This document shows positions 472-15,852 of a DNA stretch of 18,919 nucleotides, one piece after another. The first letter of the stretch is position 1. Every line of letters starts with the position of its first letter. Made by a program: the position numbers and the translations under genes. Source of the stretch: a virus (Duplodnaviria; Heunggongvirae; Uroviricota; Caudoviricetes); the IMG/VR virus record IMGVR_UViG_2563366942_000019. The stretch is one strand, 5' to 3'. A model generated the notes under the pieces. It did not search any database and was not told the DNA's origin. It was given only the letters and a program-made list of their open reading frames with translations.

Positions 472-1268
472 GTCAAATGCCATTAAATGGAGTCAGTGCT
501 GCGATGCGCGAACGGGTATCGCAGCAGTTAAAAGAAATAGAACGTCGCTATGGCGTGAAAGTGCTGTACGCCTGCGAATCAGGCAGCCGCGGCTGGGGAT
601 TTGCCTCGCCCGATAGCGACTACGATGTACGGTTTTTGTATGTCCATCCGCTGGAATGGTATCTGCGTGTAGAGTCACCGCGCGATGTTATCGAGCTGCC
701 CATCGACGACGAATTAGATGTTTCCGGTTGGGAGTGGCGTAAGGCGCTGGGATTATTGAAAGGCGCGAATCCGACGCTGATAGAATGGCTGGATTCTCCG
801 GTGGTCTATCAACAAGATGAAGAAACGATAACGGCGCTTAAGGCAATGGTCCCAATGTGGTTTTCTTCGTTGCGTGCACGCTGGCATTACTATTCGATGG
901 CGCAGAAAAACTTCCGCGGCTATTTGCAGGGCGATGAAGTTCGACTGAAAAAATACTTTTACGTGCTGCGCCCGCTGCTGGCCGTGCGCTGGGTCGAAGC
1001 GGGTAAAGGCGTGCCGCCAATGCGCTTTGCTGAGTTACTGGCAGGAAGCGAGCTTGATGCGCCGTTACGCGAAGAGATTGACGAACTGCTGGAGCGTAAA
1101 CAGCGAGCGGGGGAGGCGGAATATGGTCCGCGCCGTCCTTTGTTACATGCGTTTATTCGCGCGGAGCTGGCGCGTGGGGAAATTCCACCGATTTTACCGG
1201 ACAGTCGAGATGGAGATGTTCGGGAGCTAGATAATTTGCTGTATCAAACGGTAATGCGCCGGGCATAA
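468..1268 (+). CDS. Predicted Pol-beta-superfamily nucleotidyltransferase (minimal NTase fold with C-terminal helical domain)
   Basis: 266 aa ORF. N-terminal motif ESGSRGWGFASPDSDYDVRF matches the G[SG]...[DE]h[DE]h signature of Pol-beta-type nucleotidyltransferases. ATGA overlap with the upstream SPFH gene indicates one operon. Substrate is unknown. Confidence 0.5.
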   Translation: MSQMPLNGVSAAMRERVSQQLKEIERRYGVKVLYACESGSRGWGFASPDSDYDVRFLYVHPLEWYLRVESPRDVIELPIDDELDVSGWEWRKALGLLKGANPTLIEWLDSPVVYQQDEETITALKAMVPMWFSSLRARWHYYSMAQKNFRGYLQGDEVRLKKYFYVLRPLLAVRWVEAGKGVPPMRFAELLAGSELDAPLREEIDELLERKQRAGEAEYGPRRPLLHAFIRAELARGEIPPILPDSRDGDVRELDNLLYQTVMRRA

Positions 1269-1285
1269 AGCCCGGCGTGATTTAT
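1254..1285 (+). terminator. Stem-loop overlapping the nucleotidyltransferase stop codon, between two convergent genes; possible terminator
   Basis: cgccgggc-ataaa-gcccggcg inverted repeat followed by tgatttatt on the plus strand. The U-tract is only moderate. Confidence 0.3.
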
Positions 1286-1737
1286 TGCTGGTATTGCCAA
1301 CTGCTGACTAAAGCGTACAAGTGATTTGGAGAATAGCGCCAGCTTTCCTTCAGTTGCAGAAATTCAGCACAAAATTCACTGCAAAACAGGCGATCGCGCT
1401 GTTCTTTATTACCGATAATAATTCCTAATGCTCCGCGCCAGTCATATTTTTTGCCATCATGTTTACGGAAAAAAGTTTCCACATCCTGAAGGCTGGCCTG
1501 GAGCGGCAGCATATCCCACTTATCCGCTGGCAATGGCATTATTTTTCCGCGTACACCGCGATCGCGCAGTGATGCGGAGTAACAAAGGTAACTCTTTTCA
1601 CCATGCTTAATGGCTAATTCACAGTGGGAATAATGACCACGTGTGATTTTACGGGTAAGCCAGTCAGCCAGTCGGGCAATACCACGGTGCTCTGTTCGGC
1701 CCTTATAACAAGCGAGCCAGACAGTGGTTTTACTCAT
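1282..1737 (-). CDS. Hypothetical protein, last gene of the tail operon; weak resemblance to permuted papain-like (YaeF/YiiX, NlpC/P60-superfamily) hydrolases
   Basis: 151 aa ORF whose ATG overlaps the stop of the fibre chaperone gene (ATGA at 1734-1737). Contains His-containing motif GHYSHCELAIKHG and, C-terminal to it, CSEFCAEF, reminiscent of the His-then-Cys order and CSE motif of permuted NlpC/P60 enzymes. Assignment is from memory of motifs only. Confidence 0.45.
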   Translation of the reverse strand: MSKTTVWLACYKGRTEHRGIARLADWLTRKITRGHYSHCELAIKHGEKSYLCYSASLRDRGVRGKIMPLPADKWDMLPLQASLQDVETFFRKHDGKKYDWRGALGIIIGNKEQRDRLFCSEFCAEFLQLKESWRYSPNHLYALVSSWQYQQ

Positions 1738-2441
1738 GGTTGCCAGCCTGTTGAATAATCGTAGTCGAGCACCGCCTGAATATCGTCCAGTGCTTCCACC
1801 GCCGCGATATGGTGCTGGGCGTTTGCGAACAAGCGCATATCGTGATCCATGGTGACCGATTCAAACTGGGCAGCGATTTCGTTGGTTAACTCAATCAGAC
1901 CATTATTTTTAGTTTTCCACATTAACCCTGGCGGAATTTTTTTCTCCGCTCCCATTTTTGTGAGTGAAAGCTGTTGGATACGGCTATTTGTATCACTGTG
2001 GAAGTGATGGTTGTTGATGATGATGTAATCGGTTGTGATGGCATCGCGTTGATTTTTGATTGCAGAGTATTTCGCCTCTTTAGCATCGGTTATAGATGGT
2101 TGCCATTTTTCACCATCCCAACGTTCAAAAGAACCTGTCGGGGAAATGACTGTTACATTTTCAGGTAATTGGCCCAATTCTTGAATAATAAGCTGGCTAC
2201 CATCAACTTTGTTATAAACAGTTTGGCCTCGATGATCTTCAATAAGTCTCCATGTTTCATTCTCCCACACTGGAGTAAAACCAGGAACCTTTTCGGGAGG
2301 TGAAATTAATGTGCAATAATTTGGCAAGCCTGTATTAGGTGCAATGTATGCATCAGACTCACCGATATATTCTTGGGAGTCTTGTGAAAAATTATATACA
2401 GTTAGTATTTGAGCTTCATCGGAAAAGGTAAAAGTATTCAT
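1734..2441 (-). CDS. Tail fibre assembly chaperone (Tfa-like)
   Basis: 235 aa ORF immediately downstream of the tail fibre gene and coupled to it by an ATGA overlap (2438-2441). N-terminal region has Tfa-like features (aromatic then Gly/Pro-rich, ...[11 protein letters not shown]...). Position matches Mu U / P2 G. Confidence 0.6.
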
Positions 2442-4078
2442 GCTAGCCTCACAATATAGTTGAATGCGATATTTTTGACGGTGTTTTCGGTGTTGCCGGT
2501 ATTATTAATGGTTAGGGAGTGATTATGGGAACCAAGGGCAATTGAATGCGAATGGGTGCCAATTGAAAGTTCATGTGTATGGCTACCCAATGCGATAGTA
2601 TGTGCATGGGTACCAATGGCTGTAGTATGAGAGTGATCACCTACAGTATCGGTATTAACGTAGTCATAACGAGAGTCACCTATAGAATCAGCGGTTAGTG
2701 CATTGCCACCGTAATCAGCATCACCTTTACATGTTATTTGATGTGAATGGCCCCCTGTGCTGGTCGACGATTTACTTCCGTGATTGAACGACGATGTTGT
2801 CTTAGAACCAAGATCAGAGGCAGATGTCGTTTTGTGTCCAAAATCAAAAGATGATGTTGCCTTTGTCCCTAAATCAGTACTCGAAATACTGCCCGTATGG
2901 TTATGTGATTTAATTCCATCCAGTTCAGTAGATAATATAGCTCGCCCACTGGATGGTTTTCCTTTAATTATCCATCCGCGCATGTCAGGAATAACACCAG
3001 ATGGATATGCAATTCCCAGTTTGGGATAGGAGGCTTTATTAAATGTCTGACCTGTCATCAGAGCGTAGCCTGAAGGTATAGAATCAGATGGCCAAGGAAT
3101 AGGCATCCCTACAGGACAGCTTTCCGCAGCAATAGCCTTATCCATCGCTGCCTTAACAGCGTTCGGCGTTGCAGCTTCCGTCGTACTGGTGCTGTTGGTC
3201 GCATTATTAAGTTTCACGACCCCTTTTTGCGTCAGCGTACCGTCGGGGATACCTGTTATTTGCCCCCAGGCATGGGTATGGCTGGACGGTGCCGCAGCAA
3301 TAGCCTTATCCATCGCTGCCTTAACCGCACTTGGTGTTGCAGCTTCCGTCGTACTGGTGCTATTTGTTGTATTGTTAAGCTTAACGACTCCTTTCTGCGT
3401 CAGTGTACCATCAGGGATACCAGTAATCTGATTCCAGGCATGATTATGACTGGTGGCAGCTTTGCTATTTGCCAGGTCATATGCCGTTTTTACCGCTTTT
3501 GGCGTGGCCGCTTTGGTTTCATCATCGCTATTAGTCGCATTACTCAGCTGCGTAAAACCTTTTTGTGTCAGCGTCGCATCAGGATGATTTCGTGATTGCT
3601 GATGTGTTTTCAACGCGTCATCGACATATTCCCTGGTTGCCACAACGACTGAAGGGTCGATCAAAAGCGTCACCGCATCTGCATTGGTGACTTCCATGAC
3701 CGCGCGTATAACGATTTGCTTACTGGCCCCCGCAGGTAATCGTGGCTTATAGGTTTCCGGGAATTTACCAATAGCGACCAGCGTGCCGTCGGTATCCAGT
3801 AACCCAACTTCGCGTACATACCAGCCTCCGACTTGTTCGGGAATAATCGCTTCTGCGATAACCCAGGCCGGATTATCTGGCGCAATTTTTAATGTATTGA
3901 GCTGACCACGCCAGACCTCATGGACTACTTTGGTCTGACTTTCTGTCGGTTCGATATATTTACCATTACCGTCGCCAACTACCATAGTTTGCAGACGGAT
4001 CTGTTTTTGCTCGGCCAGTGCTGAGGCAATTTTGGCTTTGCCTGCAGCAGTTAATATTGTAAAAAATTCACTTGCCAT
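2438..4078 (-). CDS. Tail fibre protein (Mu S / P2 H-like) with internal 56-aa repeats and His-x-His C-terminal tip
   Basis: Start chosen at the internal ATG (4078-4076) giving [39 protein letters not shown], the conserved N-terminus of Mu/P2-type fibres. The track ORF extends to 4201 but would overlap the upstream gene by about 120 nt. Contains tandem fibre-repeat units ([32 protein letters not shown]) and a C-terminal HxH repeat array. Confidence 0.85.
2500..2650. repeat. Short-period coding repeat encoding five His-x-His units at the fibre C-terminus
   Basis: Translation [44 protein letters not shown], with matching nucleotide periodicity around 2520-2640. Confidence 0.6.
3128..3600. repeat. 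About 2.5 tandem copies of a 168-nt unit inside the tail fibre gene
   Basis: aatagccttatccatcgctgccttaac... recurs at 3131 and 3299 (period 168 nt = 56 codons), with a third degenerate partial copy near 3464-3600. The copies encode the repeated fibre motif. Confidence 0.7.
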
Positions 4079-4080
4079 TA

Positions 4081-4812
4081 TTACTCCGGATATACAGACA
4101 TAATTTCGGTGCTCCAGTATCCTGTGCCGACCTTCATCGGTTGGGATTGTGTTAGTCGATCGGGTTGATAAGGTAGTAGTTGAATATATTCCTCCACACA
4201 ATAACCTGTCGCTAAAAATATTCCAGATGACTGGCTGAGGCTTTCTGCAACAGGAGGCAATACTGTAATGACTTCCCCTCCTTGCATGGCACTGCCAATA
4301 ACTGGTATTGGGCTTCGATTAATAAGCCAAATAACAATGCTTTCCAGCTTTGATCGGACATTTTTATATTCATGAATTAATGTGATAAGTGCATTGAATT
4401 CATCTTCATTTAATCCTTTTTCCTCTAGTGTAATATCAACCTTAAAAAAGTAAGCCTTTCCCCCATATTCAAACCATTCTGAAATAGTTCCTGGTAGCGA
4501 AAGTATTTCCAGTACCCGCCGTACCGCCCAAATCGTTCCTTTATATTTATGCAGCTCAATGGCTTGCTTAATTAACTCGCGCTTCTCCCGCTCATCGGTG
4601 GTAAATAACCAACCTTCCAGCCCCTGAACGTGAAATTGTTCTGCAAGGGCTGGTAATGCCGAAGCATCAACCAGGTCGACCAGATAAACCATCAACGCCG
4701 TCAGATCGAGTTGGGCAAAACGCTCGGCGGCGATGTTTGCCAGAATCGAAAAACGCTCATCGCTGGCAAGCGGCGGCGGTGGCAGCAATTTATCCATCGC
4801 TGACTCCGGCAA
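4081..4812 (-). CDS. Baseplate protein, P2 gpI / Mu gp48-like
   Basis: 243 aa; N-terminal [24 protein letters not shown] matches the LLPP..S...R signature of gpI-family tail proteins. Lies between the gpJ-like and fibre genes as in Mu/P2. Start may instead be at Met6; either way it overlaps the gpJ-like stop. Confidence 0.75.
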
Positions 4813-5905
4813 TCGTGACGTCTATTGCGGTGCATTCCGCCCACTCATGCGCCTGCAAAATACGTTTTGTAGGCATATTCAGCGCAACGTCATAGACGCC
4901 ATCGACCTGTAACACTTTGATTATCTGGTTTGGTACAATGTCCTGCCCCAGATGTTTCTGCCGCTGTTGCGTCCAGAGGCTAATCGCTTTACGCGCCGCA
5001 GCCAGCGTTGTCTCCTGATCGGCGGTGGTAAACAGCGTTAGCTGCGCACGGATCTCATACGGCACTCGAAGAGCGCATTTCGCACTCACTTTGTCGGTCA
5101 GCGGTCGTTTTTTCTCCTTGCTGACTTCTTGTTCAATCTGCGCCAGCAACTCCGTGCCGGGTAGACCATTCAGGGTTAGCGGGTAGATCTCCACGCAGCC
5201 TTCTGGCAATCCCTCGTCCGGCCCCAGTACTGCAACGTCAATAATCGACTGGCTAACAGAAAGCGTATGAAAGCGGTATGCGCCATAGCTGCCCGCATTA
5301 CTAAAGCTTTCTGGTGCCAGTTGGATACGCTGGCGCAATGCGTCATCGCTCTCTTCACCGCAGCCGCCCGTTGACGCAGTCAGGTTGGTTACGTTGATGT
5401 CATAATGACCAATCCTGTCGACCAGTGCGCTAATTTGTGCAGGCTGCCAGCCGTTGCCCTGTTCACCTGCTGCGAGGCTGGTGGCAGGAACGGCGATATG
5501 CAAACTCCTGGCCGGAAGCAGAACATCTTCATCGGTGGCGAACATCACGCTATCAGAGGCACTGGCCCGCGTCCCCTGGGGAATCAGGATATTGCTGGTA
5601 TACGCACTGACGACCGAAAACTGCAACGTCGTTTTTGCCGGTTGTGCAGGCAAACGGTGAACGCCCACCAGCTCCCCTAAATAATCCAGCATTGGCGCGC
5701 GGGAATACGCGACCAGGTTCTGTTTCGCCGCTTCCTGAATGGCGATGCGTACAAGGTTTTCACGATAGGCAAACAGGTCGATGAGCAACCGCTCAGCCTG
5801 TGCCGGATAGAGTTTTTTACCGCTGGCATCTTCATATTGCGCAATCATCTCACTGGTAATTTGCGCAGGATCGCGGTCAATAAAATTGGGTTCGGCTATC
5901 GCCAT
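4790..5905 (-). CDS. Baseplate wedge protein, P2 gpJ / Mu gp47 / T4 gp6-like
   Basis: 371 aa; size, position downstream of the gpW-like gene and overlap with neighbours are typical of baseplate J proteins. Confidence 0.75.
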   Translation of the reverse strand: MAIAEPNFIDRDPAQITSEMIAQYEDASGKKLYPAQAERLLIDLFAYRENLVRIAIQEAAKQNLVAYSRAPMLDYLGELVGVHRLPAQPAKTTLQFSVVSAYTSNILIPQGTRASASDSVMFATDEDVLLPARSLHIAVPATSLAAGEQGNGWQPAQISALVDRIGHYDINVTNLTASTGGCGEESDDALRQRIQLAPESFSNAGSYGAYRFHTLSVSQSIIDVAVLGPDEGLPEGCVEIYPLTLNGLPGTELLAQIEQEVSKEKKRPLTDKVSAKCALRVPYEIRAQLTLFTTADQETTLAAARKAISLWTQQRQKHLGQDIVPNQIIKVLQVDGVYDVALNMPTKRILQAHEWAECTAIDVTIAGVSDG

Positions 5906-6255
5906 AACACCTCCGTTGAGTTGATAACGCCGTCAGCGGCGCGCCATTGCACACGTAACGTCAGATGTTCACCGTCGATTACTGGTGTCACCTTCAGCAA
6001 CCGACAGCGCGGTTCCCACTGGCGGATGGCTTCCACCGACTCCCGTACCACATGCGGGATTGCCCGCTCGATGGGGTAATCGATGTAGTGCCACAAGTTG
6101 CTGCCAAACAGCGGTCTGTGAGGATCACTGCCGCGCGGTGTGCGCAGAATGATGTGTATCGCCTGGTGAATATCATCCAGCCCGCAGACGTATTCTTCAG
6201 GCCGCTGCAAGGCCGGTTGCCAGTGCAGCGTTGAGGGGCGTGTTTTTGTTTTCAT
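5896..6255 (-). CDS. Baseplate protein, P2 gpW / Mu gp46 / T4 gp25-like
   Basis: 119 aa; small gp25/gpW-sized protein immediately upstream of the gpJ-like gene with a 10-nt overlap. Confidence 0.7.
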   Translation of the reverse strand: MKTKTRPSTLHWQPALQRPEEYVCGLDDIHQAIHIILRTPRGSDPHRPLFGSNLWHYIDYPIERAIPHVVRESVEAIRQWEPRCRLLKVTPVIDGEHLTLRVQWRAADGVINSTEVLWR

Positions 6256-6316
6256 GAGGGTATTTTCGCCCTGAACGGGCTGTGGAGATATTAAAGCGAT
6301 TTAGAAAACTGATTGA

Positions 6317-6348
6317 TTAAAAAGAGAAAACCCGCCATCAGGCGGGTT
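6317..6348 (-). terminator. Rho-independent terminator-like hairpin between the spike (V-like) and W-like genes
   Basis: Minus-strand RNA would read aacccgcc-ugau-ggcggguu followed by UUCUCUUUUUAAUC, starting 6 nt after the V-like stop (6356-6354). It sits in a 98-nt gap inside an otherwise tightly packed gene string. Confidence 0.45.
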
Positions 6349-6353
6349 AAAAG

Positions 6354-7055
6354 TCAGTGTGAATGGTGGTTGGAGTTGCCACCGCTGTCCTGCAATGCGC
6401 CGCTGGCCTGAACGTTGCCGATCACGTTGACATTGCCGGTTATCGTGGCTGCGTTACCGATGCCTCCACTTCCTGCCATCCCGCCAAGCCAGGTGAGTTT
6501 TTTCATTACCGTGACGTTGCCAGTAAAGGTGCTCATGGGCGCATCTACCGTCACTGCTGCTGCTTTAACCTCGACCTTAGTGGCGTCGATGCTGACATCG
6601 GTCGCTTTAACATCGACGGTATCGGAAGTCACGGTGACCTGTTGGGCTTTAATCTCAACGTTGGGCGATGTCAGGCAGGTACCGTTGATAACCTCAATCA
6701 CGATTTTCTCGATACCGCCGTTGATCGTCAGCTGGTGCGTGCTGCGGTCATATTCAAACGCTGCGCCATCAGAAAACTGGACGTAACGTTTGTCGCGCGA
6801 GGCTACAGGCGCGGTGTCAACCGTAGAATAAACTGCGCCCAGCACCACGCCATCTTCACCGTTATTGTCCAGCAGAACTTCCACTTGCTCGCCCATATCC
6901 GGTAGCCAGTAGTCTTTATTGTCCTGGGAATTGTGTTGAAGTACCGCAAGCCAGTTGCTCTTCAGATTGTCACACTCTGGAAGCGTGACTCGCACCCGAA
7001 CGCTGGTTTCGTCAATATCGCTGATAATCCCCGTTTGACGGGTTACTCCTTTCAT
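6354..7055 (-). CDS. Baseplate central spike, P2 gpV / Mu gp45-like
   Basis: 233 aa; N-terminal OB-like region followed by a Val/Thr-rich beta-repeat stretch (VTVTSDTVDVKATDVSIDATKVEVKAAAVTVDA), a Gly-rich segment and a terminal ...NSNHHSH, consistent with a spike and its apex. Confidence 0.75.
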   Translation of the reverse strand: MKGVTRQTGIISDIDETSVRVRVTLPECDNLKSNWLAVLQHNSQDNKDYWLPDMGEQVEVLLDNNGEDGVVLGAVYSTVDTAPVASRDKRYVQFSDGAAFEYDRSTHQLTINGGIEKIVIEVINGTCLTSPNVEIKAQQVTVTSDTVDVKATDVSIDATKVEVKAAAVTVDAPMSTFTGNVTVMKKLTWLGGMAGSGGIGNAATITGNVNVIGNVQASGALQDSGGNSNHHSH

Positions 7056-7064
7056 ATTTCCTCC

Positions 7065-8105
7065 TTACTGGCTGGTCGCTGGCCCGCGTGACACGTCGAT
7101 TTCAGTGGTATAGCCGCTGCGCACAAAACTGTGAGTAGATTTATCAATCAGCCACTGACCGGAAATCACGCCAAAATCGGTCAGTTCAATTTTATTGCCC
7201 GCCGTCAGTTCCGGGCAGCCCATCATTGTGAGCGTTCCGGTTTGCTGATATTCGTTGTGGCTGTCGAGTGCAGCGTTGGCCTTTGCCTGTGCTGCGCCAA
7301 CGTCCGTCGCCCGACTGTTCAGTTTTAGCGTGTCGGCACTGGTGCCGACTCCACGGGCAAACGGTTTTTGCTGGCTGTCGTGGGTGTAGATAACCAGTTC
7401 TTTTTTCTTACTATTTTGATGCTGTACGGTGGCGTTTTTGTAGATACGGTTAATGGTATCTTTGAAGGTGAAATGCGAAACGTCTTTGCGGTCGATCTTT
7501 TTCACAGGTGCCAGGCAGCGCAGCGTGGGTAAATGTGAAAAAATCAGCTCTTTCGTCGTCACTTTTACGGCATAACCATATTCACTGGCCAGACGTTTGA
7601 GAAATCCAACATCGGTTTCGCCGTACTGTGTCACCCGGTCAATTGTCAGAGGCTCGATTTTGCCCACCAGCTTTAGGCCGTGAGTTTGTGCGATACGGCT
7701 GGCGATAGCCGAAAGCGTCGTTTCTTCAAAGCCCTGGCTGTTACGGGTGCGCAGCGCCTGATTGACGGAAGTGGCGATGCCATCAATATTTACCGTAGAA
7801 GGTGGCGCTGAAATATCAATTTTATCAATAATATACTGACCACAATCGAGCAGCTTTTCTCCCTGATACCCCATATGCAGCGCCAGCGTATCGCCTTTGC
7901 CGGGATACCACTCTTTTATCCAGCGTCCATCTGTGTCATCCAGTGTAATTGCGATGGTATCCGACTCGTTTTTGATGCTGTCGTGGTAACTGATGCTGGT
8001 GACATAGGGTGTGATGTCATAAGTGATATCTTTATGCCCATACCAGAGGGTAAAAATGGGCGTGAGTGTGGCAAAGACGCCACCAGTTACGCTTATCTCA
8101 GCCAT
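7065..8105 (-). CDS. Baseplate hub protein, P2 gpD / Mu gp44 / T4 gp27-like
   Basis: 346 aa; position between the X-like and V-like genes and size match the gpD/late-control-D family. Confidence 0.75.
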   Translation of the reverse strand: MAEISVTGGVFATLTPIFTLWYGHKDITYDITPYVTSISYHDSIKNESDTIAITLDDTDGRWIKEWYPGKGDTLALHMGYQGEKLLDCGQYIIDKIDISAPPSTVNIDGIATSVNQALRTRNSQGFEETTLSAIASRIAQTHGLKLVGKIEPLTIDRVTQYGETDVGFLKRLASEYGYAVKVTTKELIFSHLPTLRCLAPVKKIDRKDVSHFTFKDTINRIYKNATVQHQNSKKKELVIYTHDSQQKPFARGVGTSADTLKLNSRATDVGAAQAKANAALDSHNEYQQTGTLTMMGCPELTAGNKIELTDFGVISGQWLIDKSTHSFVRSGYTTEIDVSRGPATSQ

Positions 8106-8302
8106 GGTGGGATCTCCGATAAGGTTTTATTAACGGAAATGACCGGAATAATGAGCTGAATACCGGAAGGCAGTACCGGGTAAATGGCTACATGTGGATT
8201 GGCGGCGATTATGCGTTCATAAGCCAGTGCATCACCGTAGTAATGCCATGCCAGGTTATCCCAGCGTTCGCCATCGGTGGTGATATGTTCAAGGTATCGC
8301 AT
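8093..8302 (-). CDS. Tail protein X-like (LysM-like fold)
   Basis: 69 aa; GERWDNLAWHYYGDALAYERIIAANPHVAIYPVLPSGIQLIIP fits the gpX pattern G.tld.i..ryYG......e.vl.aNP.l......LP.G..v.lP. Confidence 0.7.
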   Translation of the reverse strand: MRYLEHITTDGERWDNLAWHYYGDALAYERIIAANPHVAIYPVLPSGIQLIIPVISVNKTLSEIPPWLR

Positions 8303-9255
8303 TACCAGCTCCTGGTAATGGTTACGGCAGCAAGCTGGCTCACTGCGGGAGTGGTTTGTTGTACCGTTGTACGTGCCTGCTCAACCAACGACGTGGCTTT
8401 ATCGAACGTCGCTTCGGCGATGTCGCTGGTAATGTCGTCGAAAAGCGCCTGAGCATGGTCAACCAGCGTACTGGCGTCATTGGCGCAGTCCCGGATACCT
8501 GGCATGTTACCCAGTAAAGCTTTAATCTGCGCCGACAACGCTTTTGGTAGGCCTGCCAGCGTTTGCAGATCCATTGGCTGTTTAAACAGGGTTTCGATGG
8601 CGTCGATTGTCTTTTTCAATGACGTAATTATCTTTTCACACTTTTCTTTTAACGCTTTGGCCTCTTTAATCATTGCTTTCACTTTTGCCACCGTTTTTTT
8701 AATATCTTCAATGGATTGTGTCAGTTCATCCAGCATCTCTTTGGCCTTACGCATACCTTCTTCAATGGCGTTTAATATCTGATCAAACCAGGACTCCACC
8801 TTGTCGGGAAAATCGCTCGCCTTTTCCTCGATGTTGGGCTCCTGGGTGGTAATCGCCGGAGGTAAAAGTGGATTTTTAGGATCGCCGGTGTACTCCTGGA
8901 GCGACATCGTTCCGTTTTGGGCAATCACATTGCCCCAGGGATCGGTGTGCTGGTGGGTGGCGGTTAGCTCCGTAATCACAAACCAGCCGCGATAATCGCC
9001 ATTGCCAAATACCAGTGCCATCGCCTTGTGAGCAAGCATGGCTTCACGCAGTCGGTTCAGCTCTGTTGTGGGCTGGCAAAACTGGCTGTGCAGGGAAAAT
9101 TCCAGCGCCAGCATATCCAGCTTATCGCCAATAAACTGCACGCCGGGTTTGCCTTCTATACGGGCATGTGTGGCGTAATCCACGCCCATTGTGCTTTTAA
9201 AGCCGTCCCAGAATGTGACAACCTTAAATTCAATCTCTCCTAAAACGGCATACAT
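8302..9255 (-). CDS. Tail protein with gpU-like N-terminal domain and Lys/Glu-rich coiled-coil C-terminal extension (Mu gp43/N-like)
   Basis: 317 aa; N-terminus MYAVLGEIEFKVV... resembles P2 gpU. The C-terminal ~180 aa are heptad-like and K/E/A-rich (EEGMRKAKEMLDELTQSIEDIKKTVAKVKAMIKEAKALKEKCEKIITSLKK...). ATGA overlap with the tape-measure stop at 9255. Confidence 0.55.
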   Translation of the reverse strand: MYAVLGEIEFKVVTFWDGFKSTMGVDYATHARIEGKPGVQFIGDKLDMLALEFSLHSQFCQPTTELNRLREAMLAHKAMALVFGNGDYRGWFVITELTATHQHTDPWGNVIAQNGTMSLQEYTGDPKNPLLPPAITTQEPNIEEKASDFPDKVESWFDQILNAIEEGMRKAKEMLDELTQSIEDIKKTVAKVKAMIKEAKALKEKCEKIITSLKKTIDAIETLFKQPMDLQTLAGLPKALSAQIKALLGNMPGIRDCANDASTLVDHAQALFDDITSDIAEATFDKATSLVEQARTTVQQTTPAVSQLAAVTITRSW

Positions 9256-11630
9256 CAGGCATACCCCCGGCGCTGTTGTTGCGCCATTACGTCGTTAATC
9301 ATTCTTTCCAGTTCGCGTTTACTCATCGTCAACACGTTCTGAATCTCTTTAGTGGTGTTTTGTCCGTTTCCCTGCACGGTAATCTGTGGCGAAAAATTTA
9401 CCTGGACTTTTCCTGAGGAACGGGAGGGTAGCGTCGCCGGTTTGGTTACGGATTTACCAGGTAAAGAGGCAGATACGGGTTTGGCGGCTGTATTTTTTGC
9501 CGCTGGCGCCGATGACGGCGTAGCCGTTTTGCCGGATGGCGCGAGTTGTTTGCCCACCGGCGGCGTTAAAATCGCACCGGCAACGCCTGGAACAACGGTC
9601 GCGGGGGAGACGGATGCGGTATTAGTCGTGCTTGTAATAGCTGTAGCCGATCCTTCTGTACTAATACCCATCGTGGTTTTTAGCCAGTCTGGGATGGCGT
9701 TTTTTACCTGATCAATAATGCCTTTCAGAGCGGGGAAGGCATTCATTATGCCGTCAACCAGACTGCCCAGAAGATTGCTGCCGAACTCGCTAAAACTTGC
9801 AGGCATCTCGACACCAAACCAATTCATCACACTGGAAAAGGCGCTATAGAACAACTCCAGCGGTGACCAGTCGAGAATCAACCGACAAATTCCTGCAATG
9901 CCGCCGTCAAAGGCCGTGGTGATACGTTGCCAGATGGTCGAAAAGAACCTGGAGATAGGCTCCCAGTTGCGACAAATCAGATAAGCAGCGCCCGCAATCG
10001 CAGTGATGACCAGACCAATGGGATTCATCAATAAAACCCTACCCAACCAGAAGACGGTCTGACCTACCTGTTTCAGTGCGCCAATCAGGCCACGACCAAG
10101 CAGTTGCATTAGCCATTTTGCGCTGCCACCCAATGACTTAACCGCTGATAGCATCTTACTTGCCCCGCCTGTGAGCGCCAGACTTGCCTTGACTTTCAGG
10201 AAGATATCGACCAGACGAATAAACGGCGAGGTGATGAGGTTCGCGCCCAGCTTTAAAACATTCAGCGCGCCGTTAAACAGCCAAACCGCCCCGACGATTT
10301 TCGCAATGTTTTGCACCAGCGCCGGATGTTCGCGTAGCCAGGCGCTGAACTGGCGAATAACCGGCGTAAGGCTTTGTGCCAGCTCGCCAATCGCCGGCAT
10401 AAGCTGCAAACCAATGCTGAGCCATAAATCATTTAATGCCAGCTGTAACGCTTTAGTCTGTTCAATGGGCGAGGCCATTTGCGCAGAAAAGTCAGCGTTA
10501 ATCAGATTCTTGCTGGTGGCTTGCATGGCAGAGGCTTTTAACTGGCGATATTCCTCCATATTCGCCAGCATAGGTGCCAGGAATTCCACCGTTTGCGCAT
10601 CGCCGAACATTTCGCCCAGATTAAATTGCGTTACCATCGATTGCAGCGCATTGCTGCGAGCAGATAAATCTTCAATCTGCATAGTGCGTTTGAAGGTGTC
10701 GAGGATCGCCGGATTCATCTTCTCAAGCTGCATTTGTACGATATGAGTCATGGCTTCGCTAACACCCATACCGTTTTGCTGATGTTCAAGCAGAGAGCCT
10801 TGCAGATCGACGCCCTGGCTGGCGAACCAGCTATCGGTTTTTTTCGAAAAGGTGGTTTGCAGAAAGTGGTCGAAATTCTCCGCCGCCGCACTGGCGCTGG
10901 CCCCGTTTTTCATGGCGATCTGCATGGTGGCGCTCAGTTCAGCCATACCTTCCAGACCCTGAGCGCCGGTTTTACCTGCAAATTTCTCTATCCACTGCGT
11001 TTGTTCAGCAATGGCAGGCCCACCGCTTTTGCTAATGCCGTACATCATGTTTTGCGCGGCGTGGAAATTTTCCAGGGCAATATTCAGTCGATCATGGGTT
11101 GCGAGCGCGGCATTCGCCCATGTTTCAGCACTTTCGCGCGTGGCGGTGGCAGCTTTGGCGATCTCCGGCATATAACGGTTGAGATCCTGTATCGACGACA
11201 AATTGCCTTCGATCAGCGTTTGGGCTGCGTTCTGTAAGGTGGTCTGCTGCTGGTTAAAATCCATGCTCCAGTCGCGCAGATTAAGGCTGAGCGTCTCGCG
11301 GGTTGTAGCATTCATCCCACCTTTGGTCGCCATATTGACCATGTTGTCCTGAAACTCATACGGCAACTTCCAGTCGGGGGCTTCAACATTGAATACTTTG
11401 CTAAATTGCCCGGCAAATGTTTGGGTTTTCTCCATCAGATTAGCGCGGCTGCGGCTATTTTCCTCCAGGCGGAGAGCGGAATCGGCAAGCTGCTGCGTTA
11501 GTTTGATAACTGTCGCCTGCTGAGTAGAGAGAGTTAACAATGTTCTGGCGTTGAGTGAGCCGTAACGGGCTATTGCCTGCGTCAACGTCTCATTACGCGC
11601 CTGAAGCTGGGTAATAATATCGTTGGCCAA
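9255..11630 (-). CDS. Tail tape measure protein
   Basis: 791 aa; largest ORF; helical Ala/Gln/Leu-rich body with hydrophobic segments and a Ser/Thr/Pro/Ala-rich low-complexity C-terminus. Located after the tube and chaperone genes as in all contractile tails. Confidence 0.85.
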   Translation of the reverse strand: MANDIITQLQARNETLTQAIARYGSLNARTLLTLSTQQATVIKLTQQLADSALRLEENSRSRANLMEKTQTFAGQFSKVFNVEAPDWKLPYEFQDNMVNMATKGGMNATTRETLSLNLRDWSMDFNQQQTTLQNAAQTLIEGNLSSIQDLNRYMPEIAKAATATRESAETWANAALATHDRLNIALENFHAAQNMMYGISKSGGPAIAEQTQWIEKFAGKTGAQGLEGMAELSATMQIAMKNGASASAAAENFDHFLQTTFSKKTDSWFASQGVDLQGSLLEHQQNGMGVSEAMTHIVQMQLEKMNPAILDTFKRTMQIEDLSARSNALQSMVTQFNLGEMFGDAQTVEFLAPMLANMEEYRQLKASAMQATSKNLINADFSAQMASPIEQTKALQLALNDLWLSIGLQLMPAIGELAQSLTPVIRQFSAWLREHPALVQNIAKIVGAVWLFNGALNVLKLGANLITSPFIRLVDIFLKVKASLALTGGASKMLSAVKSLGGSAKWLMQLLGRGLIGALKQVGQTVFWLGRVLLMNPIGLVITAIAGAAYLICRNWEPISRFFSTIWQRITTAFDGGIAGICRLILDWSPLELFYSAFSSVMNWFGVEMPASFSEFGSNLLGSLVDGIMNAFPALKGIIDQVKNAIPDWLKTTMGISTEGSATAITSTTNTASVSPATVVPGVAGAILTPPVGKQLAPSGKTATPSSAPAAKNTAAKPVSASLPGKSVTKPATLPSRSSGKVQVNFSPQITVQGNGQNTTKEIQNVLTMSKRELERMINDVMAQQQRRGYA

Positions 11631-11819
11631 AATTGTTTCTCTTTAAATATTGATAATGGCCCGCTGGTTATTTTTCTAAAAAAAGGGGCAGGGAAGAAAT
11701 AAACCTGACGGGCTTGGGAAACTCGCAGACATCAGGTCTGCGAGTCATATTCGATTTTTATTTGGGCGCTGGCTTCATCCAGCCAGTTGCTAAAGTCATC
11801 GACGGTAAGGGCGTCTATC

Positions 11820-12137
11820 TCACTGGGTGGAAAGCGAAACCATCTCGCCAGTAACGCCATCGCTTGCCATAACAGTGGCGGATTCTGTAGCCACGCTAAG
11901 CATGGATTGAAATCGTTTCTGCAATGCCTGGTAATCCAGCAAATCCATTTCAGCTAAATCTTCTGGCACCAGTCCGGTCATTGCCGCCATTAGCGGTTCA
12001 TCCCACTCTTCAGGTTTTTCGCTGATCCGGCGCGCGTTGCGCATATCTTTTACTTTCAGGCGACGTAATTGCAGAGTGTTAATTACGTCTCCCGCCGCTG
12101 AAGTAAACGGGAACTGTAAGATATAATGTTCTTTCAT
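11820..12137 (-). CDS. Tail assembly chaperone (P2 gpE / Mu gp41-like)
   Basis: 105 aa acidic protein between the tube and tape-measure genes, the conserved slot for the tape-measure chaperone. The -1 frame stays open for about 33 codons past its stop. Confidence 0.55.
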   Translation of the reverse strand: MKEHYILQFPFTSAAGDVINTLQLRRLKVKDMRNARRISEKPEEWDEPLMAAMTGLVPEDLAEMDLLDYQALQKRFQSMLSVATESATVMASDGVTGEMVSLSTQ

Positions 12138-12162
12138 TTTGTGTCCTTATTTATTTTGCAAA

Positions 12163-12182
12163 GTTCGGGGCCGTAGCCCCGA
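12163..12182 (-). other. Stem-loop directly after the tail tube gene stop (possible attenuator or RNA-stabilising hairpin)
   Basis: ttcggggc-cgta-gccccgaa perfect 8-bp GC-rich stem between the tube stop (12188) and chaperone start (12137). No clear U-tract on the minus strand. Confidence 0.4.
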
Positions 12183-12187
12183 ATAAC

Positions 12188-12712
12188 TTAGCCACCGATG
12201 TTATTGCGATAGGTACTTAATTGATCCACACCATTAACCCGGAAAATATTGGCCATATAATCAAGTTCAAGCAGCGTTTCACCATCAACTACTTGTTTAA
12301 TATAAGTGCAACCAAAGGCGCTGCTGAATTCCGGGTTTTCATTCTGTTTAAATGTGCCCAGTGGATTCTTTTTAAACATCACGGTTAAATGTGTCACTAG
12401 CGCTAATTGATTCGCTTTCCCCTGGGAGTTATAGCAATCAATACTGGAGCGGCACTGTAATGCAACCGCCTGCCACGGGTTTGCCGTTTTACGCATTACG
12501 TCCTGATAGAAGGAGTTCCATTTAATTTCGCCCTCCAGTTTATCGAAACCCGCCGGGAGTTCGATTTTACCCACCATGCCCAGTGCTTTATGCTCCTGCA
12601 TAATTAAACTGACATCCGGCAATTTAATTTCGGTTGCACGACCTAAAAGGTTATTACCATCGAGATAAATATTGGCGTTGGTAATACGGTTAATTTGAAT
12701 TTTTCCAGCCAT
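12188..12712 (-). CDS. Tail tube protein (P2 FII / Mu M-like)
   Basis: 174 aa; size and position immediately downstream of the sheath gene (1-nt overlap at 12712). Confidence 0.8.
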   Translation of the reverse strand: MAGKIQINRITNANIYLDGNNLLGRATEIKLPDVSLIMQEHKALGMVGKIELPAGFDKLEGEIKWNSFYQDVMRKTANPWQAVALQCRSSIDCYNSQGKANQLALVTHLTVMFKKNPLGTFKQNENPEFSSAFGCTYIKQVVDGETLLELDYMANIFRVNGVDQLSTYRNNIGG

Positions 12713-14142
12713 TAGCTATTGCTCTCCAGAGAGACTAAATATTCAGAAGTAATTTCAGTTTCAAACGTCAGACGTTCCAGCGGCGGCGGCGGGGTGAATT
12801 TATAGCTCAGCAATAAATGCCCAGCGCTGAGTTCAGTCGGTGAATTTCGCGCCGGATCGTACCAGCATTCAAAGCCAAGCAGTGCGCCGTCGGCAATCAG
12901 CTTACGGCCCCAGGTATTTACCGATTCGGTCAGGGCATCAATCAGCGCCTGATTAATCGGCATATCAATATACTGCTGACTGAAATAACGGATTGACTCA
13001 TTAATTACATCGCCTGTCCGGCGGACGTTTTCAAAGTTACGCATATGGGTCACGGTAGGCCACGCTGCAGTGCGGTTGCCCCACAAGCGCAGACCAGAGC
13101 CGTAACTATTGAAAATAGTGGTAATGCCGTTTTCGTTTAGCTGATTCACTTCGCTTTGTGGATCATCAATCATTGCGGAAAGCGAACGTTCAATACCGGT
13201 AATACCCTGAATTTCTTGGTTTGAGTTGCTCCACCAGAAACCTTTTTCGAGGTCTACTTTGGCACGTAGCCCGGCAGCGCGCGAAGAGAGCGGTTCGAGA
13301 ACTTCTTGGTTAGTGATGCCATCGTAAACTTTGACGTGTGGGTAACATAAACGCGCACGATCAGAGCTGGTGTTGAAGTTGATAGCCCCTTGCGAACCGC
13401 GTCCTGCCAATACCTGCTGGAATGTCGTCCCAATCGGGGCATCAATGTAGGTAATCGCACCAAGTTTTTCCGCTTGTGCAATCAGCTCTGTAGTTACTGA
13501 TTTTTGCGTACAGAACACGGGAGCAAGCAGGATTTTGGCGTAGAAACCATACAGGTTATAGGTGTCCTGTAGCAGTTCCATCCCCGTGCGATCGCCTGCG
13601 GTATTAACGGCACCGATAATATCGGCTGCGGTGACCTTTGTAGGGTCGCACCAGGAATAATAGGCGCAAACTTTCGCACCAGGAGGAATGTCGGCTCCTG
13701 TACGGGTAATTATGCCTGTTTGTTCATCTACGCTAAATGCTGCGGTGTTATAGGTTGATGAATTTGATGAAGAGGGCTTTAGAACCACGTTACGCACATT
13801 GCGGTGAGTGAGTTTCGCCTGGTTGTTAGCATCAAAAGTGATACTTTCATTGCTGATGTTGGAGCCATGTTTTGCCGGATCCAGCACGTTAATCACCACC
13901 ACCGTACCGGCACCGTGGTCATAAATCGCCTTCAGTGCCTGTGGGATCGTAAAGTTAGTCTGAGTCGAACCAAACTGCGCAGCATCGCTTTCAGAAAGGC
14001 ATAATGTTGGTTTATTTACCGGACCACAGGGGGCCGTACCGATTAAAGCGATGACGGCGGATTTTACCGCTTTAACCGGACGCGGGCCGGTTTCAATTTC
14101 AATGGTTTCTACACCGTGCAGATAATTAGCTGCCATGTACAA
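12712..14142 (-). CDS. Contractile tail sheath protein (P2 FI / Mu L-like)
   Basis: 476 aa; N-terminus ...NYLHGVETIEIETGPRPV resembles the conserved sheath N-terminus; size and position are typical. Confidence 0.85.
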   Translation of the reverse strand: MYMAANYLHGVETIEIETGPRPVKAVKSAVIALIGTAPCGPVNKPTLCLSESDAAQFGSTQTNFTIPQALKAIYDHGAGTVVVINVLDPAKHGSNISNESITFDANNQAKLTHRNVRNVVLKPSSSNSSTYNTAAFSVDEQTGIITRTGADIPPGAKVCAYYSWCDPTKVTAADIIGAVNTAGDRTGMELLQDTYNLYGFYAKILLAPVFCTQKSVTTELIAQAEKLGAITYIDAPIGTTFQQVLAGRGSQGAINFNTSSDRARLCYPHVKVYDGITNQEVLEPLSSRAAGLRAKVDLEKGFWWSNSNQEIQGITGIERSLSAMIDDPQSEVNQLNENGITTIFNSYGSGLRLWGNRTAAWPTVTHMRNFENVRRTGDVINESIRYFSQQYIDMPINQALIDALTESVNTWGRKLIADGALLGFECWYDPARNSPTELSAGHLLLSYKFTPPPPLERLTFETEITSEYLVSLESNS

Positions 14143-14323
14143 TTTCCTCTCCGTTATTTTGTTCTTCCTGAGTGATGACAGGAGTCAGATGATTGCGGGC
14201 AATCATGGTCATGACCCACTCGTTGTCTTCTGGCAGATCAATTTCACTGTTCGGCCACAATAAGATTTCTTGTCCGTCGGCAAGGGTGACGCCGCTTGCC
14301 GGGCCGTTGTAGATGTATTTCAT
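14126..14323 (-). CDS. Small tail-associated protein (Mu gp37-like)
   Basis: 65 aa ORF overlapping the sheath start by 17 nt and the upstream gene by 4 nt, in the position of Mu gp37 just upstream of the sheath gene. Confidence 0.45.
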   Translation of the reverse strand: MKYIYNGPASGVTLADGQEILLWPNSEIDLPEDNEWVMTMIARNHLTPVITQEEQNNGEEIVHGS

Positions 14324-14775
14324 TCAGTTTCCTCGTAATTAACTTCAGTAAGCAGGGTAAGGTCCGTGCTTTCCCGTTTCGCGATAAACAGCGAGCTGGT
14401 CGCCATTTCCAGGATGTAGCGGCAGAAACCGCCGCTCTCACCTGTATTAATTTCTTTTTCAAGCCAAAGCAGACGATCGCAATCAGGAAGCTGAAGGCCA
14501 CCCAATGCGCTGCGTATGTGATCAAGTGCGTTTAACGCGTCACAATTTTTGCCAACAATAACGGTGGCGGTTAAGCGAAGTATTTGCTGTTGCACGATGG
14601 CATCACTGCTTTCGGGCGTGGTAAAGACAGAACCGCTATAATTAACAATCACCGCAACTTGTTGTGTCTGTGGAATATATTTCTGGGCATCCGTAGATGA
14701 AATAAATACGTCCATTTCGGGGTTGTGCTCACGTAATCTTGTCACGACACAATTCATTACAGATAAAATTTCCAT
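14320..14775 (-). CDS. Tail completion/terminator-type protein (Mu gp36-like)
   Basis: 151 aa, first gene after the intergenic region and terminator, in the position of Mu gp36 upstream of gp37 and the sheath gene. Confidence 0.45.
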   Translation of the reverse strand: MEILSVMNCVVTRLREHNPEMDVFISSTDAQKYIPQTQQVAVIVNYSGSVFTTPESSDAIVQQQILRLTATVIVGKNCDALNALDHIRSALGGLQLPDCDRLLWLEKEINTGESGGFCRYILEMATSSLFIAKRESTDLTLLTEVNYEETE

Positions 14776-14882
14776 ATAGGCTGTACCTTAATTACCGCTC
14801 ACTTCGTTATCGTTGAGATATATTCTGAAGCAGTGAAGGTGAAGAATCTTTTAATGTGATTTAGAGAAAAAATTGAATGGTT
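14776..14882 (-). promoter_or_regulatory. Putative promoter region for the tail operon (possibly activator-dependent)
   Basis: 107-nt AT-rich gap between the terminator and the first tail gene. No convincing sigma70 -35/-10 pair was found by eye, as would be expected for a Mor/C-dependent late promoter. Confidence 0.3.
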
Positions 14883-14920
14883 AAAAAAATCCCCACCCTT
14901 ACATAAGGGTGGGGATTTTT
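14883..14920 (-). terminator. Rho-independent (bidirectional) terminator after the lysis cassette
   Basis: ccccaccct-tacata-agggtgggg 9-bp stem flanked by aaaaaaa (14883-14889) and attttt (14915-14920). On the minus strand the stem is followed by a U7 tract. Abuts the stop of the 14920-15234 gene. Confidence 0.7.
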
Positions 14921-15234
14921 CAATAACTGCCACGTTGTAACAGCTCGATTTTGCTATATAAGGCATCCAGCTTCGCTTCTAATACTGCTTGCCCACGAAG
15001 ATAATCTTCTCTGCGGACATAATGCAGCGGAAGCTCGGCACGAAATTCGAGAAATTCTCTTTCCAGTTTCGACCAACTTGTTTCTGATTCCCTGCGGGCA
15101 TTTTCCAGAGACTCAAAACGCTCATTAAGTCGTTTTTCAATTTGTGCTAACAGCAGTTTTCCGGCAGCAAACATTAATCCAACGAAGGAAAGCATAAGGG
15201 AGATCACTTCCCAAAAATCGATACTGAGTTTCAT
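14920..15234 (-). CDS. Lysis-cassette membrane protein: N-terminal transmembrane helix plus coiled-coil (i-spanin-like, or Mu gp25 releasin-like)
   Basis: 104 aa; hydrophobic segment WEVISLMLSFVGLMFAAGKLLLA followed by a charged heptad region (EKRLNERFESLENARRESETSWSKLEREFLEFRAEL). Good RBS (agagggg) upstream; lies 12 nt after the transglycosylase stop. Confidence 0.45.
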   Translation of the reverse strand: MKLSIDFWEVISLMLSFVGLMFAAGKLLLAQIEKRLNERFESLENARRESETSWSKLEREFLEFRAELPLHYVRREDYLRGQAVLEAKLDALYSKIELLQRGSY

Positions 15235-15246
15235 CGGCCCCTCTGA

Positions 15247-15852
15247 TTAATGAAGACAGCTTGCCTGTCCCCAGAGTAAATAGCGGGCGGCATGTTGATA
15301 GAGGATCATCTTTGGATAGCGACGATTTTCTCGCCAGTTCGTGGCGCTGCGCCCGGCGTTGACTTGCTCAACATGACCAAACCAGCTAGTGGCATCTAAC
15401 CCTTTGGATGCAGCCAGTTTTTTATCCCGGTTAACCCACCCCTGACCGCCGTTATAGGCGCTTAGGGTAAACGCCATACGCTGACAATCATTTTTCGCAG
15501 AGATGTTTTTCCACAAATGCTGGTCATATTGCACCAGCGCGCGAATCGCCCAGGTTGGGTTATACGGTTTGTTTTCACGCAATTGTGGATACAACTGGCT
15601 TATCCATGTCGCTGTAGCAGGCATAAATTGCGCCATACCTTGTGCGCCAACGGGGGAACGTACCATTGGCTGCCAGGCGGACTCCTGGTGTAATTGCCCG
15701 GCAAAGTCGGCCACTGGAGCATTCAGCCCCCAGACTTCTCGAGCTGTACGAATTAGTTCGTTTCGCCATGCCAGAGAGGCTCGCGGCGGTTCAGAGGCGT
15801 TAAGCGGGAAAAGAACGAAAATAATCATAGACGCGATATATTTCAGCCACAT
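15247..15852 (-). CDS. Lytic transglycosylase (SLT domain) with N-terminal signal/SAR-like sequence; putative endolysin
   Basis: Start chosen at the internal ATG (15852-15850) giving MWLKYIASMIIFVLFPLNA. SLT family-1 motifs are present: HQESAW, GAQGMAQFMP, AYNGGQGW. The track ORF starting at 15930 would overlap the upstream gene by 76 nt. Confidence 0.75.
   Translation of the reverse strand: MWLKYIASMIIFVLFPLNASEPPRASLAWRNELIRTAREVWGLNAPVADFAGQLHQESAWQPMVRSPVGAQGMAQFMPATATWISQLYPQLRENKPYNPTWAIRALVQYDQHLWKNISAKNDCQRMAFTLSAYNGGQGWVNRDKKLAASKGLDATSWFGHVEQVNAGRSATNWRENRRYPKMILYQHAARYLLWGQASCLH

Follow-up and report, generated by a model that had tools for sequence, protein, structure and literature searches.

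What kind of protein is encoded by a small gene placed at the very end of a phage tail-fibre operon, directly behind the fibre and its assembly chaperone, and what could it do there? This question is raised by IMG/VR virus record IMGVR_UViG_2563366942_000019 (Caudoviricetes), a stretch of 18,919 nucleotides (nt) that we call the window, and specifically by an open reading frame (ORF) of 151 codons on its minus strand, which runs from the ATG at 1737 to the TAA at 1282. An earlier note, based on the sequence alone, had suggested a permuted NlpC/P60 hydrolase of the YaeF/YiiX type. Our results bear this out in that the protein very probably possesses a circularly permuted NlpC/P60 papain fold of this type, and they identify the gene as the terminal member of a widely conserved module composed of a tail fibre, a tail-fibre assembly chaperone (Tfa) of the Mu-U type, and the enzyme. 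The complete statement that we favour, which unites this fold, a thiol-based acyl chemistry and a role linked to the fibre, has in our estimation a probability of about 0.6.

Fold and catalytic site of the enzyme

Conservation was counted in two alignments, one comprising 83 homologues and the other 144 diverse representatives that share 29-53% identity with the query. The gene and its predicted catalytic codons are the following:

1282..1737, minus strand: gene for the predicted permuted papain-like (YaeF/YiiX-type NlpC/P60) enzyme of 151 amino acids (aa), based on the ORF call, homologues, fold, profiles and the ratio of nonsynonymous to synonymous substitution rates (dN/dS)
1624..1626, minus strand: CAC codon of His38, the predicted catalytic His, in the motif YSHCE (36-40); invariant in 83/83 and 144/144 sequences and aligned to His49 of both YiiX and BcPPNE
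1444..1446, minus strand: TAT codon of Tyr98, the predicted NlpC/P60 signature Tyr (oxyanion/P1-carbonyl residue), in the motif KKYDW; invariant and aligned to YiiX Tyr115 in GKPYD
1381..1383, minus strand: TGC codon of Cys119, the predicted nucleophile, in the motif FCSEF (118-122); invariant in 83/83 and 144/144 sequences and aligned to YiiX Cys128 and BcPPNE Cys154

The ORF is a real gene and not a chance reading frame. All 151 codons are intact in 15/15 Escherichia coli alleles examined, and the gene is under strong purifying selection (dN/dS of 0.04-0.14 against the other E. coli alleles). It is present as a single copy in each of 199 of the 5426 complete E. coli genomes; in the chromosome of E. 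coli MS 21-1, which is 100% identical to the window, its product is WP_000047948.1, a 'hypothetical protein', and its Salmonella orthologue is LT2 STM4198. While one word-indexed protein search returned 89 homologues, an exhaustive profile search over representatives of 50%-identity clusters found 4447 representatives at E <= 1e-3 and 1905 at E <= 1e-10. Among the matches listed from this search, which are strong family members, there was no sequence bridging to PF05708, and the longer family members contained no informative domain fusions, since their extensions look like mis-called starts or frameshifts.

Family profiles were built from the 83 homologues and from the 144 more diverse members, and both were run against the sequences of the PDB. 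The 83-homologue profile matched 3kw0, the Bacillus cereus YaeF/YiiX-like 'cysteine peptidase' known as BcPPNE, with an E value of 2.8e-5 and with the His and Cys motifs both aligned, and it matched 2if6, the E. coli YiiX, weakly. With the 144-member profile the values were 2.9e-4 for 3kw0 and 5.8e-3 for 2if6, the latter as a single stretch spanning the His, the Tyr and the Cys; the window protein alone yielded just a weak match to 3kw0 (E 0.45). For a comparison between families, a YiiX alignment was seeded with the yiiX of the same strain, its relatives were gathered and aligned, and hhalign related the enzyme family to it with a probability of 95.6% (E 1.3e-8), pairing H38, Y98 and C119 with H49, Y115 and C128 of YiiX. 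An AlphaFold2 model built on the family alignment (predicted local distance difference test, pLDDT, 82; predicted template modelling score, pTM, 0.81) shows the core of the superfamily, a five-stranded antiparallel sheet packed on the Cys-bearing helix, and Foldseek searches of the PDB with this model returned 3kw0 as the sole significant match (E 7.7e-4). Among predicted viral structures, the best matches were uncharacterised phage proteins together with one annotated as 'permuted papain-like amidase, YaeF/YiiX, C92 family'; some phage proteins have thus already been annotated as C92-family members, and therefore the kind of enzyme is known. The features of a canonical NlpC/P60 or CHAP cell-wall endopeptidase, namely a Cys placed N-terminal to the His, an export signal and a peptidoglycan-type S1 site, were not found in the protein.

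The residues that are conserved are those expected of a catalytic site. According to Xu et al., four residues make up the catalytic set, a Cys/His dyad, a signature Tyr equivalent to papain Gln19, and a third polar residue; these are Cys128, His49, Tyr115 and Glu64 in YiiX and Cys154, His49, Tyr127 and Glu64 in BcPPNE (PMC3142127). The earlier note had pointed to a His-containing motif and a C-terminal CSEF motif and asked whether the two residues would be conserved. Both motifs are present, and the only invariant columns among the 144 representatives are H38, W74, Y98 and C119. Neither of the two outcomes that the note had named as refuting it, a lack of significant similarity to NlpC/P60 folds or variable Cys and His positions among homologues, was observed. 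In the AlphaFold2 model His38 lies on a beta-strand and Cys119 starts the helix 119-126, and the order of the residues is permuted, with His38 before Cys119. In BcPPNE the S1' site binds lysine through Ser48, His49 and Asp68 (PMC3142127), and Ser37 and Asp59, which match Ser48 and Asp68, are invariant in the 83-sequence alignment. Invariant Glu40, two positions after the His, may replace the third Glu of the triad, a residue that is dispensable in LRAT and PPPDE1 (PMC3142127). High, though not absolute, conservation is also seen at C39 (82/83), C52 (76/83) and C123 (72/83); these additional cysteines give rise to chance-level matches to metallothionein and FCS zinc-finger models, and they might form a buried cluster or a metal site.

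YiiX and BcPPNE are the closest known relatives. They have the same permuted order His...Tyr...Cys as the phage enzyme and share with it the motifs YSH, G-K-x-YD and CSE, to which BcPPNE adds the D-x-G-V-R motif that includes its lysine-binding Asp68. Nevertheless, identity amounts to approximately 18-21% only, and the two bacterial proteins are longer (190-200 aa versus about 150 aa); their Glu64 is not conserved at the aligned position of the phage enzyme, where Glu40 is the invariant residue instead, and Y-K-G takes the place of the 'GD' motif of their strand 1. Export or lipid anchoring is frequent among YiiX-type proteins (PMC3142127), whereas the phage enzyme carries no signal peptide, and they are encoded in chromosomal housekeeping contexts, whereas the phage enzyme belongs to tail-fibre operons. 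By score the enzyme does not belong to PF05708, although the profile-profile homology is significant; it is homologous to the YaeF/YiiX branch at the superfamily level and constitutes a distinct phage clade. LRAT/PLAAT (HRASLS), Staphylococcus aureus LnsA, Vibrio RID, TseH of the type VI secretion system and Tox-Act1 are structurally more distant than YiiX; they are secreted toxins, membrane-anchored or eukaryotic proteins, and none of them is linked to virion assembly genes. Permuted NlpC/P60 proteins also occur in eukaryotic viruses, as poxvirus G6R and picornavirus 2A (H-box/NC; Aichivirus 2A, PDB 7zv6), but these belong to a different clade, 2A being LRAT-like, and have no relation to tail or attachment organelles.

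A conserved module of fibre, chaperone and enzyme

The genes upstream of the enzyme, the junctions between them and the element behind the enzyme gene are as follows:

1737-1734, minus strand: ATGA overlap of the Tfa stop (TGA) and the enzyme start (ATG), ...CAACCATGAGT
2441-2438, minus strand: ATGA overlap of the fibre stop (TGA) and the Tfa start (ATG), ...GCATGAATACT
1734..2441, minus strand: tail-fibre assembly chaperone (Tfa) of the Mu-U type, 235 aa, recognised by Pfam and by PHROG tail-fibre assembly families
2438..4078, minus strand: tail-fibre gene, ORF from the ATG at 4078, 546 aa, recognised by its Pfam domains
1255..1279, no strand assigned: GC-rich hairpin, terminator-like, 10 pairs of which 8 are G-C

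The two consecutive ATGA overlaps that had been read as joining fibre, Tfa and the third ORF are found at these junctions exactly as described, and the identities given to the two upstream genes agree with their Pfam domains. Tfa matches DUF4376 with an E value of 2.5e-14 and, weakly, Caudo_TAP (E 3.8e-7), its constant C-terminal DUF4376 domain occupying aa 119-227 (approximately nt 1761-2087). In the product of Mu gene U (TfaMu) this domain is the conserved C-terminal part responsible for trimerisation, and the variable N-domain binds the fibre tip, where the chaperone remains bound (PMC7882524, PMC9608196); chaperones of this type have been proposed as transient 'caps' of the fibre (PMC10579305). 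The fibre consists of a Phage_tail_fib N-terminus, Phage_fiber_2 repeats, a Collar domain and a His-x-His-rich C-terminus (Pfam and sequence), the latter resembling the metal-binding repeats of T4 gp37-type fibre tips. Its mechanically called ORF reaches beyond the ATG at 4078 to a TTG at 4201; RefSeq gives the fibre as two pseudogene fragments, and the reading frame in the window (2438-4201) is uninterrupted.

Is this arrangement a peculiarity of one cluster? We examined 84 loci from IMG/VR and GenBank phages and an independent set of one genome per species with 75 assessable loci, for which a narrower alignment was used. An upstream ORF of at least 100 aa abuts the enzyme gene in 77/84 viral loci and in 65/75 species genomes; the overlap is the identical 4-nt ATGA in 58/84 and 21/75 of them, and some overlap with the upstream ORF exists in 72/84 viral loci (1-11 nt) and 45/75 species genomes (1-14 nt over both sets). 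When non-identical cases are considered, the upstream partner contains DUF4376 in 39/62 viral and 33/65 species loci and Caudo_TAP in 10/62 and 13/65, and it matches phrog_2837 in 55/62. The gene before Tfa is a tail fibre of varied architecture, with Phage_fiber_2 in 26/51 and Collar in 24/51 cases, Gp53-like_C in 10, and also Gly-rich, gp37 and collagen types. The order fibre-Tfa-enzyme recurs in SuMu (a Mu-like myovirus), Pasteurella phage Pm86, the Moraxella Mcat phages, Pseudomonas pAN and Acidovorax AP1, as well as in relatives at 35-41% identity, among them a P2-type tail cluster. The arrangement, in which the earlier note had seen an unusual enzymatic accessory for a tail-fibre operon, is no peculiarity of one cluster; it is a widely conserved module, and the gene occupies the same slot in homologous tail clusters. 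No description of a fixed genomic partnership between the enzyme and Tfa was found in the searched literature.

Phage Mu itself provides the closest comparison for the upstream genes. Its S and U (TfaMu) constitute the same pair of fibre and DUF4376 chaperone, with the same behaviour of a variable N-terminal and a constant C-terminal part of the chaperone. In Mu, however, the genes behind U are the inverted S'U', gin and com/mom, none of which encodes such an enzyme, whereas in the window, SuMu, Pm86, Mcat, pAN and AP1 a third, enzymatic gene is appended. The slot had been likened to the gin/mom position of Mu, and this agrees with Mu-like SuMu, where the homologue lies between Tfa and com/mom-like genes.

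A comparison of the window with the same island in E. coli D6 indicates which parts of the module are exchanged. The enzymes are 96% identical; in Tfa, identity is 89% over the C-terminal 118 aa, with no relation in the N-terminal part, and the fibres share 63% identity over their N-terminal two thirds, the C-terminal third being unrelated. The weaker E. coli matches listed share with the window no more than the enzyme gene and 3' Tfa sequence (query 6-775), with approximately 93% nt identity, and the 90-95% identity band includes 48 E. coli genomes. The swapped host-range cassette is therefore the fibre C-terminus plus the Tfa N-terminus, and the enzyme is inherited with the constant DUF4376 half of the chaperone. 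An enzyme kept in this constant portion probably does not act on a substrate tied to one particular receptor or fibre tip.

In most relatives the start of the enzyme gene overlaps or abuts the Tfa stop, and for this reason the enzyme is presumably made from the late fibre transcript and translationally coupled. A consensus scan, which is weak evidence, found no sigma-70-like site on the minus strand inside the Tfa gene. The earlier note had also mentioned a moron; in the strict sense of a gene with its own promoter that is expressed in the lysogen, this finds no support in the overlapping stop and start codons. The enzyme has approximately 17.8 kDa and a pI (isoelectric point) of 9.4, and no signal peptide or membrane segment was detected in it (highest 19-residue hydropathy, 0.14); it would therefore be cytoplasmic unless it leaves the cell with the particle. 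The proposal that it acts at a particular receptor is weakened both by the lack of a signal peptide and by its inheritance with the constant chaperone half.

The tail cluster and its surroundings

The enzyme gene is the last gene of an island that occupies 1282-18919 of the window and constitutes a headless contractile-tail cluster of the Mu/P2 type, in which fibre, Tfa and enzyme are accompanied by genes for a Mor activator, a holin, a lytic transglycosylase and the sheath, tube, tape measure and baseplate; the cluster has no gene of its own for a capsid, a terminase, an integrase or a transposase. The hairpin at 1255-1279, between the enzyme gene and a convergent nucleotidyltransferase gene, closes both the tail operon and the island. 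The island is located between yjbD and lysC, and the same cluster is present at the same site in E. coli D6 and in Salmonella, where it corresponds to LT2 STM4198-4219, the 'Def4' remnant. It could be a domesticated R-type tailocin common to E. coli and Salmonella. R2-pyocin-like regions are described in a paper on an E. coli ST131 'tailocin', which may concern a different island.

At approximately 16481-18238 of the window, between the holin and the divergent Mor gene, this strain carries a gene for the ISL3-like ISEc53 transposase and one of the ClbS/DfsB family (colibactin self-protection fold), at a position where D6 has a 537-nt spacer only, and this insertion may uncouple the late operon from its activator. 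In the island of Salmonella Infantis SARB27, a gtrABC operon for O-antigen glucosylation is located between the baseplate genes V and W (12748-15583 of that stretch); the cluster therefore accepts cargo within its tail operon.

On the other side of the hairpin, positions 1-1268 of the window hold a slipin/SPFH-family gene and an RlaP-family nucleotidyltransferase gene (PF10127, E 2.9e-96), which flank the island. By the mechanical ORF call the stop of the former and the start of the latter overlap by 4 nt (468-471), and RefSeq places the nucleotidyltransferase start 9 nt further in. The slipin/SPFH gene is a pseudogene with an internal stop in MS 21-1 and is intact in D6, and in these two strains, the E. 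coli strains examined, the pair is placed between yjbD and the tail cluster. It has no match in PADLOC.

Proposed chemistry, competing explanations and significance

The enzyme is probably catalytically active, considering the conservation of its predicted site. In the mechanism that we propose, Cys119, activated by His38, would attack a carbonyl and form an acyl-thioester on the enzyme, from which the acyl group would pass either to water, as in a hydrolase, or to an amine or hydroxyl, as in an acyltransferase. By analogy with the characterised permuted relatives (YiiX, LRAT/PLAAT, LnsA, RID, Tox-Act1/TseH), whose targets are ester or amide bonds of fatty acyl groups, this group would most likely be fatty acyl, a substrate to which we assign about even odds. 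In this respect, a fatty acid occupied the hydrophobic S1 pocket of YiiX in the crystal, and the enzyme was proposed to be an amidase of lipid-peptide bonds (PMC3142127); LRAT/PLAAT proteins are acyltransferases and phospholipases and LnsA participates in lipoprotein N-acylation (PMC7387801); Tox-Act1 and TseH act as phospholipases, and DUF4105/Lnb N-acylates lipoproteins (PMC12994826). The bond cleaved or formed might be an acyl-amide with an amino-acid-like, amine-bearing partner, because the lysine-binding Ser48, His49 and Asp68 of BcPPNE are conserved as Ser37, His38 and Asp59.

The biological role is the least certain step of the explanation, and we consider a tie to the fibre-chaperone module to be as probable as its absence. 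The enzyme would act in the producing cell, late in infection, on a target common to all the fibres of the module and not on a particular receptor. The best candidates for this target would be the fibre-Tfa complex, reached through its constant DUF4376 portion, or a membrane lipid or lipoprotein of a general kind, and the outcome could be a tuned maturation of the fibre, the release of the chaperone cap or a changed membrane affinity of the fibre tip. A more specific form of this idea, which we regard as a rather doubtful possibility, pairs the enzyme specifically with the DUF4376 chaperone; the enzyme would either acylate or deacylate the fibre-chaperone complex or ride the chaperone cap into the particle and cut an acyl bond of the target outer membrane. 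In the packaged variant, to which we give no greater credence, the bond would be one of lipid A, a lipoprotein or a phospholipid and would be cut at adsorption, in a phage or in a tailocin. If the fibre-chaperone complex is the substrate, a tail fibre would for the first time be seen to undergo lipid modification by an enzyme; if the enzyme is packaged, it would parallel the receptor-modifying esterases and depolymerases of tailspikes, but with lipid as its target.

It is important to consider the observations that weigh against the statement that we favour. As to the fold and the site, the window protein scored below every threshold in Pfam and NCBIfam scans and had no PF05708 match at E <= 1, and PF05708 (Peptidase_C92) weakly matched just 2/83 (best E 0.0053) and 3/144 (best E 1.6e-4) of its relatives. 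Furthermore, Glu64 of YiiX and BcPPNE falls opposite Tyr53 (by hhalign and by hmmsearch against 2if6) or Ala55 (by hmmsearch against 3kw0), and both columns are non-conserved, with Y in 63/83 in the first and S in 64 and A in 19 of 83 in the second. As to the role, no functional study of the family was found in the searched literature (STM4198, DUF4376, TfaMu and Peptidase_C92), and the SuMu homologue is not listed among the 20 proteins identified by mass spectrometry of a precipitated phage preparation. Phage Mu and many other DUF4376 chaperones function without such a gene, and the adjacency to Tfa may mean no more than that genes insert preferentially where late operons end. An exception to the conserved context is the homologue in Ralstonia jumbo phage FLC1-1B (gp184, 31% identity, 3495-3932 of its stretch), which is solitary, on the strand opposite to its neighbours and with no adjacent Tfa; the enzyme can therefore exist outside the fibre module. 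Finally, the preservation of an intact gene under selection in a reduced cluster fits a tail or fibre function and fits a retained cargo gene equally well.

Among the alternatives, listed by weight, an unrelated cargo gene comes before a peptidase of the fibre or Tfa, an inactive or metal-binding adaptor, and the enoyl-CoA hydratase named in databases. The cargo explanation, which we judge to be unlikely, holds that the gene is a moron, an exclusion factor or a host-fitness factor unrelated to fibres and parked at the tolerated 3' end of the late operon, where its product would serve the infected cell or the lysogen, for instance through changes to membrane lipids or lipoproteins that block superinfection or help lysis. 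The position after Tfa is a known hot spot for cargo (P2 Z/fun, Mu gin/mom), PHROGs places the family in its category 'moron, auxiliary metabolic gene and host takeover', and lysis genes follow the enzyme in AP1, pAN and one further relative locus. The same explanation would account for the solitary FLC1-1B homologue, for the DUF4376 chaperones that, as in Mu, have no enzyme gene beside them, and for the persistence of the gene in the old headless Salmonella Def4 remnant that also keeps gtrABC. However, typical morons have their own promoter and terminator, whereas most loci here have the enzyme start overlapping the Tfa stop and the consensus scan gave no promoter-like site upstream of the enzyme; moreover, the same neighbour is retained down to 35% identity across myo-, sipho- and tailocin-like clusters, and no known defence protein was matched (PADLOC, 0 families at E <= 0.01). 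A protein-directed cysteine peptidase, which would cut the fibre or Tfa, for instance to remove the chaperone 'cap' or to trim the fibre C-terminus, and no fatty-acyl bond, seems quite improbable to us. It would agree with the papain-like fold and its Cys/His/Tyr site, with the deposition of 3kw0 as a 'cysteine peptidase', with the co-inheritance of the enzyme and the constant DUF4376 domain, and with the persistence of DUF4376 chaperones on the fibre tip as proposed transient caps (PMC10579305, PMC7882524). Nonetheless, protein cleavage by permuted NlpC/P60 enzymes is not known outside the more distant PPPDE/DeSI group, and the narrow hydrophobic S1 pocket of the closest structures was judged unsuited to peptides (PMC3142127).

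The two remaining explanations concern the nature of the protein itself. An adaptor that keeps the fold as an inactive scaffold, with its Cys and His binding a metal or stabilising the structure, and that serves as a second assembly factor would be suggested by the conservation of C39, C52 and C123, by the chance-level metallothionein and FCS zinc-finger matches, by the PDB title of 2if6, which names YiiX a 'metalloprotein', and by the missing canonical third triad residue. We consider it very improbable, given that the invariant columns fall precisely on the His, Tyr and Cys that are catalytic in the superfamily and the additional cysteines can be replaced, that the S1' residues Ser37 and Asp59 are invariant too, and that the active relatives LRAT and PPPDE1 tolerate the loss of the third residue (PMC3142127). 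An enoyl-CoA hydratase or carnitine racemase-like enzyme has a negligible probability. It is favoured by a propagated name alone: PHROGs describes the family, phrog_1128, as 'enoyl-CoA hydratase/carnithine racemase-like', and the same name is attached to SuMu gp51 (3944-4465 of the SuMu stretch examined), to Pm86 ORF70 (4001-4456 of the Pm86 stretch examined) and to several Pasteurellaceae proteins. The label is wrong and already refuted by the fold and profile results, as there is no crotonase/ECH Pfam match (E <= 1) and no crotonase among the fold matches, 151 aa is far below the approximately 250 aa of a crotonase domain, and the conserved set is a papain-type Cys/His/Tyr; in PHROGs and GenBank this name is a propagated mis-annotation.

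Tail-fibre modules are the main determinants of host range in phages and tailocins and are engineered for therapy. They have been treated as two-part systems of fibre and chaperone, and the reading favoured here, that of a permuted papain-like enzyme with thiol acyl chemistry and a fibre-linked role, adds a third, enzymatic component. The family is very large, un- or mis-annotated, and joined to the Mu-U-type chaperone in phages of Enterobacteriaceae, Pasteurellaceae, Neisseriaceae and Moraxellaceae, and likewise in the headless tail cluster common to E. coli and Salmonella (Def4). At the least, a wrong name is replaced by a testable one, with catalytic residues to mutate. If the fibre, the chaperone or the envelope is indeed modified, the enzyme could change how well engineered fibres and tailocins are produced or how active they are, and it would offer a tractable biological read-out for the poorly understood bacterial YaeF/YiiX branch.

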